From Myxococcota bacterium (lineage in GTDB: Bacteria > Myxococcota > XYA12-FULL-58-9 > JABJBS01): a stretch of DNA of 64,000 nt. Under the pieces are notes generated by a model. That model saw only the letters and a list, made by a program, of their open reading frames with translations. It did not search any database and was not told the origin of the DNA. Positions 3,012-11,218 of this stretch are shown here, one piece after another. Made by a program: the position numbers and the translations under genes. The DNA lies in the NCBI GenBank assembly GCA_036339465.1, contig JAYZAY010000021.1, positions 14,880 through 78,879 on the forward strand. Direction: 5' to 3'. How positions within the stretch are numbered: the stretch's first letter is position 1; each line of letters opens with the position of its first letter.

Positions 3012-6000
3012 TCAAGCCTCACCCAACACTTTAGAACTGGCGCTCAACAGAGAGCTGAAGCAACGATAATTTTCTATCACGCCCCGATCTAAATCAAAAT
3101 CACTCATCTTCCATTCATGGGCTTCTAGTTCTTCACTCATTTTTCGAAGTTCATCTATTTTTTCGTGAACTCCATTTTTCTTAGGCAAACGCTTAGGGGT
3201 TTTCTCCAAGTCAGCGTAAAGGGCTAGAATTAAGGGCTCCACATATCTTTCCCGAATCACCGACAAGGTCTTTGGATTGATCCCGTGCACATAAACCAAA
3301 CATTCAAAGGACCGCAATTTCCCCGAACTTACCTTCCAATAAATCGGTCGTCTCTTATACTTCTGGAGATGGTCCTTATAAAATCCATTCTCCTGAGTGA
3401 AATAGCGTTGTATCGTTCTCTGGGGAGATTCTCCTCCTCTTGGTCCCAGAATTCCTGCAATGAAACTCAAGCACGAAAGGGTGTTCGTATGGCCCCATAC
3501 AAGGGAGATAAAACCTTCGAGTCTGGACGCGGCCTCATCTGGAAATTGGCCCTGGCTAAGAGGGATAATCCCATCTTGAACCGAATATCCTAAATCATTA
3601 CCAGCAAGGTGATCTGGCCCAACACCATCACCCACAATCATTAACCCTGGTCGCTTCAACGAGTAGCGCCCCATGAAACAACCAATAGCATACGAAATGA
3701 AATCTTTAATTGCATCCTGCAGAAATAGCGCCTTATACTCTTTTTTCTGAAGCCCACGACCATAGCGATAAACCGGATTCATCATGAGCGTAATTTCAGC
3801 GAGGGAGACCTCCGTGCCCACTTCACCCTTCAAACCATAATGCTCCACTAAAGCACAATTATTGGCTATTTCTAAAACACGCAAACGTTCGGTTGTTTCC
3901 AAATTATATTGATATTGATGGTGTAATGAAGATTCGATGTCTACACCCGCGACTCCATCAACGCCCCGAGGCAACCACGGTAATGTCTCGAAATCCCAGC
4001 TTAGCTCCGAGCTGTTCCAGTCCTCTCGAGCAATGGCAACCATACTCTTCAAGCGTTCATGACCATCCACATGCAGCCTGCCAACCGGTAGCTTCGAAAT
4101 CGCACCCTGCTCGAAATTAAGAGTCTGAGAAAACACCTGAATACATTCCTGAGCAACACTTGAATTTAGATACCCCAAAAGCCCAAGCAACTGTGACTCA
4201 TCCTCGTGGAGAATAAACATTCCTGCCTCGCTAGGAATAGAACCTTCATCGCAAATCCGTACGGCAAAATAGCTCGAAGAAATCTTCGTCCAAGTCAGAC
4301 CTTGCTTGAAATACACACGCTCGTTTTGTGGGCGAGATTTTCGACGACCAGAATCATCACGATAACTCTTAACCCGACACCCATTGTCCTCCCAATCCAC
4401 AACAAAAAGGTGATTTCCGTACCATTTGCGATAATCACCTCCCTTTAAATACGGAAACCATCGCGCCGTTTTAGGCCCTGGCTTTCTCCCTGGCCTGTAA
4501 ATTTTTCGAGAATCCACCTCAAACCAATATCGGACAAACTTTGGAGTATCTCCCGTTATAAGACCCTGCTTAACTTCAAAGCCATCACTCAAATGTTTTC
4601 GCGTTTCGAAAAGAGACTGTAGACCTTTGCCCAAAAAATACCCGAGACTTTTTTGCGGAAAGCTATTGAAGAAGGATGATTTCCTCCGGAATAGCCAGCC
4701 ACAATTGGGATTCACAATCGCCTCAAGGGTTCTCGGGCCTTGTTGATCCACACCTTTAAATCCAGAAAGCCGGACATAGCCTGCTTGATAATGGCTGTCG
4801 TGCTTATTTTGGAATGTAAAACAACAAATAGGGACAGTCGCCCCGGCAAAAGCCGAATACTCCAATTGCACCACACTTGTAATTGTGGCGGAATCTAGGA
4901 GCTGATACCGCAATGCCGCATAGGACCCAATAAACATCCAAACAAAGGGTGTCATAAAACCCAAATGGCCTTCTTCTTTTACAAGCTTTCGACAACGAAC
5001 AATAAAGGCAGAAAAAAGATCTGCCTGGTAACCGGAAAAATATTCCGTTAAGTACCGACGCACGACATCCGGTTGGTGTTTGCGTCCCATAAACGGGGGG
5101 TTGGCAATGATAACATCGTGCTCACGACACAGAACCTGAGCAACCTCGAGAAGAGTCAGAAGCTTCGGGTTTGCTCGCCCAAAAAAGGCCAATTTCCCTT
5201 TCTCACATGATTCCCGTAGTTCGGGCAAACACCGCTGTAATTTCTGCGGAACTTCAATAAGAGAGCCCAATAATGGCGCGGCCTCAAACACCGCTGCAAG
5301 CTCTCCCAACAAAACACCCTCTCGCCCTAGTGGTGCAAGCATCGACTCTACCACGAGAGTCGATGTATCGGGATAGGCCCACAAACTCAGGCTAGGCTGC
5401 CGCTCAAGGATCCCTGGATCATCGAGGTTGGCACGCAACAAAAGAACCGTCTCGGCCAATCTAATTGCACGCTCATCGATATCGAGACCGACTAAATTGT
5501 TTTCAAGTATGAGGGACGCTGCCTCGATCAAATCATAGCCTGCTTTTAAGTAAGCCTCCCTCATCACCTCATAAGCATCCAACAACAAATGGCCTGTGCC
5601 GGCAGCGGGGTCCAAAATTGTCATTTCGGTAAGGTCAAGCTGTCCACACCCAAAGGTATCTGAAGGTGACGGTAAAAGATAATTAAGCCTAAGGCCATCT
5701 CTACTAGACGCGACTCTCGTTTTGAGATATCTCCCCAGGCTATTGTGCACCAGGTATCTCGAGACCCACTTGGGAGTAAAAAGTTGGGTAACCACAGCCA
5801 ATTCACGCGCACTCGAAACCCTGCCCGAGACTTGTTTTTTGTCATAATCAACAAAGCCTTGAAAGCACCAACCCAAAATCTCACAATTTCTCCAGAGTTC
5901 CTCCGGAAGACCAAAACAAAAGTGGTTAGCCACCTCTAAATTCATCAGACTTTCGACCGTGGACTCTGACTCAAGCTCCTCTAAATGCCGAAACAACGCC

Positions 6001-9619: not shown

Positions 9620-11218
9620 TTAGGATTGAAGGGTGATTTCGCCCGCGAGGTATTTTTCTTTGAACAACTCCTCGCCCATGGCGGCGACCCTCTTCAACAA
9701 CGCCTCTTCCAAAAAGGCCGAAACAAATGCTTTGTTGGGTCGCCCTGCCCTTCCGAGGGAGTGTTTGGCCTGCTCCTTGGCTTCCGCTTCTAGGTTTTTA
9801 TAATCTCGGTGGGTCAACTCGTCTTCCGCCTTGGAGATCATCGTGGTCCTATATTCCTGCCATAAGGTCTCAAGGTCTAGAAGTTCGGTCTCTTGTTTTT
9901 TCGGATGTCGGGACCGGTTGACGGCACTTCGTGCCCCATTTTCAAATCCCTTAAGATAAAAGAAACTCTGTATCTCATCTTCGGATTTGAATTTCCTCGC
10001 CTGTTCAATTGCATGGTTCAGCATTTCAAGGGCACTGGGTTCACCGTGTTTGTCAATCCATGCCAAGGCGAGGTCGTGTTCCTTTCGAGTAATCGTGATT
10101 CCTTCTGAAGAGCCATGAAGCAGTTCATAAAACTTCTCCACCAGGGTATCGGCTGGATCGATTATTTTTGTTCTTGCTTGTTTGGGTACACGTTCGAAAA
10201 TATACCGAAAATCGTCACGGGATTTATCGACAGTAAGACTTATCTTTAAGCCGCGAGCTTGTAATCGAATCATGGAAGCCTCCACCTGATCGGTGACATA
10301 GCTTGAAGCGGTCCGACCGCCTCGGATAATTTTTTCGCTGTCCATGGCCAATTTGTATTTAGCGAATCGGCGACAGCTTTTGACTGTTTCCTTGCGTTTG
10401 CGAGCCAATTGTCGATCGAGCCAACGAAAGAGTCTTATGTCGATGGGTCTTTCCAAGCTGAGAAGAAATTTCATATCAAGTCGTTTGGTATAATTCTCCT
10501 TAATGGATTGATAAAATAATTCACCCCAGCGAATCTCATACACTTTCTTGCGACGGCGACCGCCCCGCTTCTGCGCTTGGATAACCTCATTTTCGATAAA
10601 ACTGGTTTGGTCGGGTTCTTCTTCATCGTCATCGCGTTCCGTGAGATCGACAATGTAATCAATAATGGAGAAATTCGCAGGTCGGTGTGTTTTCAGGGAA
10701 GGAACCCACCATTTGTCGTGAATGATTCTGGTTGCTGCAATGCGTTCCAACTCGCAGGTTGCGCGTTTCAGCTCTTTGCCTGCACGCCGGCTTTTAGAGT
10801 GGGGATACATATAATCATCCACAAGTTCTCGAATCGCAAATTGAAACTTTGGTGACTGAAATGAGTTTTGTTTATTGTGCATCCAAAGAAGGGCTAGAAG
10901 AGTTCGCTCTGCATATGCCGATGGGAGCCCGCTACCTGAACCGGCTTCTAAGCGATAGCTCTTGTCTTCGGATAAATAGATGATATTGGATTGTCGATTT
11001 GGCTTTTTACCACGACCGGGGCGATTGTCTGTAAGTCGACAAAAGGGAATTTCAACAAGGTTCATTTCATCGATAGCGCGTTCGCCATCGAGAGCGTTGA
11101 AAGGCAGGTTAAGTTGATTTTTGGAATCGTAATCAATGATGGGTTCGAGATCTTGGAGTTCGCCGTCTTGGTCTTCGGGATTGCCACTGGGTTCTCGGTT
11201 GGCGAATTTTTTTTTGAT
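9620..11218 (-). CDS. Plasmid/chromid replication initiator protein (Rep)
   Basis: DEMNLVEIPF motif, GLPS..ERTLLALL and RLFRWLD pattern of Rep initiators; adjacent to iterons and parA. The ORF track starts at ATG 11065, but the frame is open to an ATC at 11218 preceded by AAGGAGG. Confidence 0.75.
   Translation of the reverse strand: MKKKFANREPSGNPEDQDGELQDLEPIIDYDSKNQLNLPFNALDGERAIDEMNLVEIPFCRLTDNRPGRGKKPNRQSNIIYLSEDKSYRLEAGSGSGLPSAYAERTLLALLWMHNKQNSFQSPKFQFAIRELVDDYMYPHSKSRRAGKELKRATCELERIAATRIIHDKWWVPSLKTHRPANFSIIDYIVDLTERDDDEEEPDQTSFIENEVIQAQKRGGRRRKKVYEIRWGELFYQSIKENYTKRLDMKFLLSLERPIDIRLFRWLDRQLARKRKETVKSCRRFAKYKLAMDSEKIIRGGRTASSYVTDQVEASMIRLQARGLKISLTVDKSRDDFRYIFERVPKQARTKIIDPADTLVEKFYELLHGSSEGITITRKEHDLALAWIDKHGEPSALEMLNHAIEQARKFKSEDEIQSFFYLKGFENGARSAVNRSRHPKKQETELLDLETLWQEYRTTMISKAEDELTHRDYKNLEAEAKEQAKHSLGRAGRPNKAFVSAFLEEALLKRVAAMGEELFKEKYLAGEITLQS

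Follow-up and report, generated by a model that had tools for sequence, protein, structure and literature searches.

A tandem pair of orphan PglX-type methyltransferase genes behind an iteron-type replication initiator in a Myxococcota genome

Gene content of the locus

The stretch of DNA analysed here, called the window throughout, is 64 kb long and corresponds to positions 14880-78879 of contig C21 in the assembly of a Myxococcota bacterium (4.17 Mb, 102 contigs, 92.8% complete); its DNA is also present in marine metagenomes. The minus strand of the window carries two genes, pglX1 (6289-9561, 1090 aa) and pglX2 (3012-6281, 1089 aa), each encoding an orphan PglX/BrxX protein, the methyltransferase of type 1 BREX, with a trimmed N-terminal domain (NTD). 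The order along this strand is parA, a small gene, nine iteron copies, the replication initiator gene rep, pglX1 and pglX2, followed by a convergent helical-repeat gene, such that the immediate neighbours of the pair are rep and the latter. The start codon of pglX1 is GTG, while pglX2 is counted from the ATG that aligns with Met1 of pglX1. An earlier note on this DNA had described two PglX paralogues on the strand of rep, with gaps of 58 bp between the rep stop and pglX1 and of 7 bp between pglX1 and pglX2; this arrangement was confirmed, with both open reading frames (ORFs) intact. The rep/pglX1 junction is bridged by contigs of the marine runs X1, X3 and X7, and the pglX1/pglX2 junction by those of X3 and X4; since these contigs come from other marine runs, the gene order is not an assembly artefact. 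An apparent deletion joint at 7120-8675 inside pglX1 (runs X1, X6, X7, X8) was rejected: it came from a foreign contig, through matches of 18 and 21 bases with loose ends on both sides.

Anatomy of the two proteins

Both proteins score well above the curated cut-off (500 bits) of the NCBIfam BREX-1 PglX profile NF033452, with 923 bits for pglX1 and 786 bits for pglX2. They are 37% identical to each other, and their closest database homologues are only 39-40% identical. The structural models (predicted local distance difference test, pLDDT, 88.3 and predicted template modelling score, pTM, 0.72 for pglX1; pLDDT 90.0 and pTM 0.88 for pglX2) both fold like BrxX, and the top Foldseek matches of the pglX1 model are PglX/BrxX proteins (TM score 0.77 to 9ewz). 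The description of the pair as near full-length needs one correction, as the NTD is specifically shortened: the distance from the start to a conserved GW motif is 135 and 138 aa, versus a median of 210, a loss of about 70 residues. In an alignment with 221 homologues, 79 and 89 of the first 200 core columns are missing in the two copies through several in-frame deletions, and the insert of the methyltransferase domain (MTD) is partly missing in both. With the limits given in PMC11842806, the trimmed NTD of pglX1 (9175-9561, minus strand) has about 129 aa, versus 210 in E. coli BrxX; that of pglX2 (5886-6281, minus strand) was delimited from alignment and model. Both models lack the three-stranded sheet that the same source describes in the NTD of E. 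coli BrxX; in them the NTD is all-helical and no strand occurs before residue 220. The N-terminal PD-(D/E)XK nuclease domain of Type IIG/IIL restriction-modification enzymes is not present, as in both models the first 220 residues are the all-helical remnant of the PglX NTD.

Motif I (DPAAGTG), the TQ pair, motif IV and the base-flipping residues are retained in both copies, as are the residues for S-adenosylmethionine (SAM) and for target recognition. Motif IV is NPPY in pglX1 (residues 386-389; 8395-8406, minus strand) and NPPF in pglX2 (residues 394-397; 5091-5102, minus strand). Motif I, TQ and NPP[YF] are essentially unchanged, with a few conservative changes, in 25 of 25 short forms of PglX (see below). 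The metal site of the C-terminal domain (CTD), D997/D999/D1012/Y1113, has Ala and Val at the D997 position of the two copies and His at the D999 position of pglX1, the other two ligands being retained; the D997 ligand is Asp in 15/20 BREX-embedded proteins and in 0/18 orphans. Seven residues that are near-invariant in BREX-embedded PglX (Y42, T43, N46, R249, R286, R287 and H1055, pglX1 numbering) are lost in both copies. When the columns conserved in 23 BREX-embedded proteins are considered, their retention by 25 orphans is highest in the target recognition domain (TRD, 0.90) and the catalytic half (0.87), and lower in the CTD (0.76) and NTD (0.53). At window positions 8906 and 8896, runs X1 and X6, from two studies, encode Val in place of Asp at residue 219 of pglX1, immediately before motif I; this position is hydrophobic in homologues.

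The paralogues are sisters on MTD-TRD trees, with Shimodaira-Hasegawa-like approximate likelihood ratio (SH-aLRT) support of 100 and 99, and both branches are long. In a tree of the TRD only, pglX2 grouped with other proteins, and a constraint joining the two TRDs was not rejected (p = 0.08); the two copies carry different TRD types. The sixth-base loop of both is that of the E. fergusonii enzyme (GCTAAT) and the Acinetobacter enzyme (GTAGAT), and both have the Asn by which the E. coli enzyme reads A4. From these three examples both target sites can be predicted, by weak inference, to have the form NNNA(m6A)T, where m6A is N6-methyladenine; six-mer counts gave no hint of a target.

Search for BREX partners

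A family scan of the window found no brx genes and no pglZ, as the earlier note had claimed. In the whole assembly there were 0 matches each for BrxC, PglZ, BrxB and BrxL, and 0 for DUF499 (PF04465) and DUF6079, with positive controls; a custom BrxC profile was also blank, and no brx remnant was found. The BrxA profile had 0 matches, but its control was silent as well; tblastn with two BrxA proteins was likewise blank. A single tblastn match, to the Lon-like end of BrxL, is located on contig C59. With no BREX partner family found in the genome, the two genes qualify as true orphans. A narrow motif screen identified them as the only two ORFs of the genome with both methyltransferase motifs of this type.

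The situation is different elsewhere in the phylum: among 400 genomes, 36 others have a PglX match, of which 32 have BrxC, adjacent on the same contig in 30 (counted by hand; 31/35 and 29/35 without the unpublished G208). No match to pglX1 was found at E 1e-40 in 21 other genomes of the order. Its PLSDB matches, among the 40 of 276 that were listed, are mostly annotated as pglX, with 36-38% identity, and the two that were opened are both in BREX operons.

It could be argued that the pair works with a BREX core (BrxB, BrxC, PglZ) that is unassembled or resides on mobile elements, adding specificities in trans. The incompleteness of the assembly leaves room for such a core, complementation of pglX in trans is reported in PMC12707154, and three of 17 Clostridia genomes with an orphan pglX (G053, G510, G692) also hold a full BREX elsewhere. 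Nonetheless, we consider this arrangement improbable: six partner families and the custom BrxC profile are without match, the other 14 Clostridia genomes have no BrxC match either, and both copies have lost the D997 ligand and the seven residues listed above. The proposal of the earlier note that the proteins plug into a host BREX complex fares poorly for the same reasons: searches of the genome yielded no BrxB, BrxC or PglZ, and the surfaces specific to BrxX that have been proposed as docking sites are eroded.

Selection on the orphan genes

Between pglX1 and pglX2 dS is saturated and dN is 0.63, with identities of 52, 63 and 34% at the three codon positions; yet both 3.3-kb frames are free of stops and frameshifts, even though each gene has accumulated several indels, in-frame deletions among them, and roughly one substitution per site. 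Five other orphan pairs have dN/dS values of 0.13-0.19; the TRD is the most conserved domain in 5/5 and the NTD the least conserved in 3/5. In five BREX pairs, instead, the NTD is the most conserved domain in 5/5, and TRD identity falls to 34-45% in three. As regards the most conserved domain, orphans are the reverse of BREX in these sequence comparisons.

An alternative view is that a BREX locus was deleted not long ago and left the pair behind as relics, now drifting. The long branches and the lack of a match in 21 other genomes of the order would suit a relic, and so would the population variants of the pair in 8 runs, which number only eight, at low depth, and look neutral (6 non-synonymous to 2 synonymous, versus 3.4:1 expected). 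None of these variants is a stop or frameshift, however, and the losses are concentrated in the NTD and in surface residues rather than evenly spread. The tetranucleotide make-up of the two genes is inside the range of the genome (27th and 88th percentile), and there is no trace of a brx remnant. We therefore regard decay of this kind as very improbable; long-term selection on orphan genes is borne out by the intact frames and by the dN/dS of the other orphan pairs, while the population variants are neutral-like.

Orphan PglX as a recurrent class

When 50% representatives were searched with a profile built from the pair, more PglX proteins trimmed in this way were retrieved. The trimmed proteins are scattered, with at least 11 forced changes, on a tree from which the NTD was left out; ten of them (P0248-P0334) were used in the trees and in one comparison set, and are outside the context-verified counts. 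A gap pattern for short NTD spacing retrieved 13 GTDB loci, of which 12 are truly short and without brx neighbours in their flanks (some flanks being short); the remaining one, L048, was rejected as a full-NTD PglX in a BREX operon. In the genomes of these 13 loci, BrxC exceeds the cut-off in 2 and gives a partial match in a third, and PglZ is found in 4. Among 14 gap-pattern loci in metagenome contigs, four are truly short orphans that repeat lineages already seen; nine others proved to be full-NTD proteins in BREX operons and were dropped from the trimmed count, and L089 was uninformative. False positives of the gap pattern arise out of frame or at another RLME word. Viral loci numbered 0 by gap pattern and 0 by rep.

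An even sample of 399 Clostridia genomes included 40 with PglX. There, all 24 loci beside brxC have 205-240 aa before the GW motif, and 0/24 are trimmed; of 17 orphan loci, 10 have at most 190 aa and 7 have 198-239. The association of trimming with orphan status is significant (Fisher p = 2e-5; 3e-4 without three seed loci), although the orphan kin are not independent and represent about six or seven lineages. This tabulation omits L104 and L123 (ambiguous) and L117 and L122 (N-termini cut), and G515 and G755 are unscored. Every trimmed protein of known context is an orphan, while not every orphan is trimmed; trimming as the defining mark of orphans was accordingly rejected on the 7/17 with a near-full NTD. 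In one lineage (L106/L108 versus L049/L055) orphaning came first and trimming later. A single origin was rejected for 13 context-verified orphans (approximately unbiased, AU, test, p = 3e-6, for a group named by context but after earlier trees had been viewed), and on a second tree these orphans require at least 4 forced changes. The trees thus indicate that orphans arose several times. Schinkia azotoformans LMG 9581 has an orphan pglX and no BrxC or PglZ match; a literature search on its methylome returned nothing relevant.

Other architectures were noticed in the course of this survey. In Ruminococcus/Oscillospiraceae (L043-L045, genomes G041-G043) the orphan PglX stops after the TRD, at 735-800 aa, and G042 and G043 have a CTD-only ORF of about 305 aa on a separate contig. 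Loci L118-L121, which lie in housekeeping contexts, encode a mini-PglX (805-870 aa) whose NTD measures 79-95 aa and whose C-terminus is shortened; dN/dS is 0.17 in one pair. BREX loci L083, L084, L086, L091 and L093 have a split pglX, in which the CTD is encoded separately, after an inserted gene. One broken orphan pglX copy adjoins a relaxase and a resolvase.

The replication initiator and its link to pglX

The rep gene (9620-11218, minus strand) encodes an RPA/TrfA-like replication initiator. Its product has no Pfam match, and in particular no direct match to PF10134; the family is present in its homologues, however, and the protein itself matches plasmid records of 'replication initiator protein A'/TrfA. 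The first ATG is at 11065 (481 aa); judging from the sequence, the true start is likely an in-frame ATC at 11218, 51 codons before that ATG and behind a strong AGGAGGGG site (11218-11240, minus strand). The added stretch resembles the N-termini of the paralogues, and contigs of runs X4 and X6 have the same letters here. Upstream of rep are two iteron clusters, of five 21-22-bp copies (11329-11434) and four 21-bp copies (11527-11610), a small protein (11811-12161, minus strand) that overlaps the end of parA and, from its position, is likely a partition partner (no family match), and the ParA-type ATPase gene parA (12151-12972, minus strand). The locus thus has the rep homology, phased iterons and par genes of an RPA/TrfA-like iteron replicon. 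The genome has one dnaA and five paralogous RPA-type rep genes (contigs C5, C21, C45, C68 and C86), with a differing repeat upstream of each. The strand skew changes sign close to rep and reverts after about 9 kb (window ~8000-18000), so that the origin marks only a short local domain.

Dam methylation times initiation of Vibrio chromosome 2, and one may ask whether the pair is likewise a dedicated part of the replicon, co-expressed with rep and methylating the iterons to time initiation. The common strand and the short gaps would suit this scheme, no terminator-like site is listed between rep and pglX1 (promoter and terminator scans are within shuffle range), and read-through from rep into pglX is possible. 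Several iteron copies also contain TTTAAT, which fits the predicted NNNAAT form; this match is weak, because AAT also occurs in the repeats of 3/4 of the other modules. The comparative evidence goes in the opposite direction. Behind three of the other rep paralogues the slot holds an integrase, an HD protein or an AAA ATPase, and the fourth ends at the contig end; rep is matched in 5/40 relatives, and in the four that were read pglX is neither nearby nor over the cut-off in the genome. Hence 0/8 other rep modules (four paralogues, four relatives) have pglX, and no other orphan pglX locus examined is beside a rep. Since the other rep modules hold varied genes and the other orphan loci examined have no rep beside them, the position behind rep represents a variable cargo slot, and the place of the pair is probably incidental; the dedicated rep-pglX module put forward in the earlier note is not supported, and iteron methylation as a timer is highly improbable. 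The same low credence applies to a broader scheme in which PglX repeatedly sheds its BrxC-docking, self-inhibiting surfaces and, here, a duplicated pair was captured by an iteron replicon, is read through from rep, and hemimethylates the iterons to gate initiation in a genome with five sister replicons. In genome G008 a Dam-type (D12) methyltransferase gene (L098:8539-9369) is about 5 kb from the rep homologue.

A few other features of the window deserve mention. Tandem simple repeats of 16 and 9 bp occupy 15174-15396, in a long intergenic stretch upstream of msrA. A cytochrome P450 is seemingly split over two overlapping ORFs, followed by an asparagine synthase fragment (19811-21147 and 21451-21930). 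Two large ORFs of 1075 and 1074 aa are found at 25375-33629, the second with a double PLD domain and the first without a clear family.

Interpretation of the orphan pair

These results can be viewed against what is known of BrxX. Type 1 BREX methylation requires BrxB, BrxC and PglZ (PMC11842806, PMC13326643, PMC9009780); isolated BrxX binds its site with SAM but does not methylate (PMC11842806), although slow, weak site-specific activity was measured for two isolated BrxX proteins (PMC11317158). The NTD is suggested as an interaction interface in PMC12839542, and according to a published guess the NTD, the CTD or the MTD insert of BrxX is self-inhibitory. Orphans lose precisely the segments proposed for interaction or inhibition, and their catalytic and target parts are retained. 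When the N-terminal half of a canonical PglX was folded with the C-terminal half of a canonical BrxC (stand-ins from G520), the score was 0.50, versus 0.00 for the best control, with contact agreement between runs of at least 89% and partner pLDDT of at least 79; this is weak support, since the score mark is reached by 116/157 solved and 2/215 mismatched pairs, and the range up to 0.60 holds only 18/157 solved pairs and both mismatches.

We favour the view that the pair are domesticated, BrxC-independent, stand-alone m6A methyltransferases with two specificities, and assign to it a probability of roughly 0.55; of the functions that the earlier note had entertained, autonomous methylation is thus the one that best suits the data. 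In this scenario a BREX-derived pglX pair would have landed in the variable slot behind a plasmid-type rep, with a tandem duplication accompanied by divergence or exchange of the TRD, and the remaining BREX genes would have been lost or would never have arrived. The surfaces that dock BrxC and hold BrxX inactive would then have eroded, freeing the weak latent activity reported for isolated BrxX. Each protein would place m6A on a single strand of its own asymmetric site, the two sites being different, and the benefit would likely be as in other orphan methylases, that is epigenetic marking or protection of resident DNA rather than control of the neighbouring origin.

Several observations weigh against stand-alone methylation. 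No activity of PglX alone was seen in PMC11842806 and PMC11341690, and methylation by a stand-alone orphan PglX is not reported in any paper that we found. The assembly is incomplete and divided into many contigs. Trimming is not needed for orphan life, because so many Clostridia orphans keep a near-full NTD, and it may follow relaxation rather than cause autonomy. With best identities of 39-40%, there is no close homologue with which the pair's own history could be tested; present-day purifying selection is not visible in its few, low-depth population variants; and pglX2 is the more eroded copy (NPPF, GWCFQ, end branch ~1.0). Finally, because solo activity was not seen and mutation of Y511 abolished DNA binding as well, the kept catalytic residues fit a pure DNA-binder equally well.

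According to the latter hypothesis, the two proteins are idle sequence-specific DNA binders or decoys, serving in regulation or as a sink for Ocr and similar phage DNA mimics, and the SAM and base-flipping pocket is kept because BrxX needs it to grip its site. This is consistent with SAM-dependent binding by BrxX alone and with the loss of DNA binding in the Y511A mutant (PMC11842806), and also with the TRD being the most conserved domain in orphans; indeed, all the data presented here are equally compatible with it. On the other hand, the weak activity of the two isolated BrxX proteins speaks for autonomy, a pure Ocr sink would have no need for a conserved TRD, and no other such enzyme that the pair could shield was seen in the narrow screen. 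We therefore consider the binders unlikely, but less so than any of the other alternatives above.

The pair is a real feature and a variant of a known protein family; it is the orphan class, rather than the rep neighbourhood, that makes it interesting, and the rep link adds little unless iteron methylation is shown. Extra pglX copies are reportedly noted in the original BREX paper. No paper on a stand-alone PglX class was found in the literature searched, although such genes could already be listed in the supplement of PMC12839542, in REBASE or in the original BREX paper. As regards the question of why BrxX needs BrxB, BrxC and PglZ before methylating, orphans are natural, repeated experiments on the self-inhibition guess: the segments and residues that disappear together with the partners can be read from them, and culturable hosts such as Schinkia azotoformans are a source of candidate enzymes that would need no partner. 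If active, orphans would write m6A on a single strand and have exchangeable target domains, and a considerable fraction of the genes labelled 'BREX pglX' (17 of the 43 classifiable Clostridia loci, 3 of these being seeds) would not be defence genes. The present locus adds to the class a tandem pair with two target-domain types from a marine lineage.

Comparison with known systems

With type 1 BREX PglX/BrxX (E. coli HS, 9EWZ/8ZEK; Salmonella, 8C45/8Q56) the pair shares the NTD-MTD-TRD-CTD order, the gamma-class motifs, the adenine-pocket residues and the fold. It differs in that brxB, brxC, pglZ and brxL were not found near it or in its genome, in the shorter NTD devoid of the beta-sheet, in the shortened MTD insert, in the loss of the D997 ligand and of BREX-conserved surface residues, and in the presence of two copies with different TRD types. 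BREX-related (BR) three-gene systems and MANTIS also have a methyltransferase outside the six-gene BREX, as is the case here, but these systems (PMC13326643; MANTIS preprint) depend on a helicase-nuclease together with an ATPase, either DUF499 or BrxC-like, and neither DUF499 nor DUF6079 was found in this genome.

RPA (PF10134)/TrfA-like iteron replicons of Planctomycetes plasmids have in common with the locus the rep homology, the 21-bp iterons and the upstream parA. The locus, by contrast, is in chromosome-like DNA, and is one of five modules in the genome, the only one with pglX behind it.

The catalytic and TRD core is common to the pair, to orphan gamma-class adenine methyltransferases (CamA, 7LNI/7LT5; M.BseCI) and to the Type IIL enzyme MmeI (Foldseek ranks 7-45). 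CamA, M.BseCI and MmeI are without the NTD and CTD of BrxX, whereas the pair retains part of both; the nuclease domain of MmeI has no counterpart in the pair, and the activity of these enzymes is proven whereas that of the pair is predicted. Like orphans of the CamA/M.BseCI type, the pair consists of stand-alone genes, with the conserved specificity expected of orphans: no cognate partner was found, and purifying selection is recognized both between the paralogues and in other orphan pairs.

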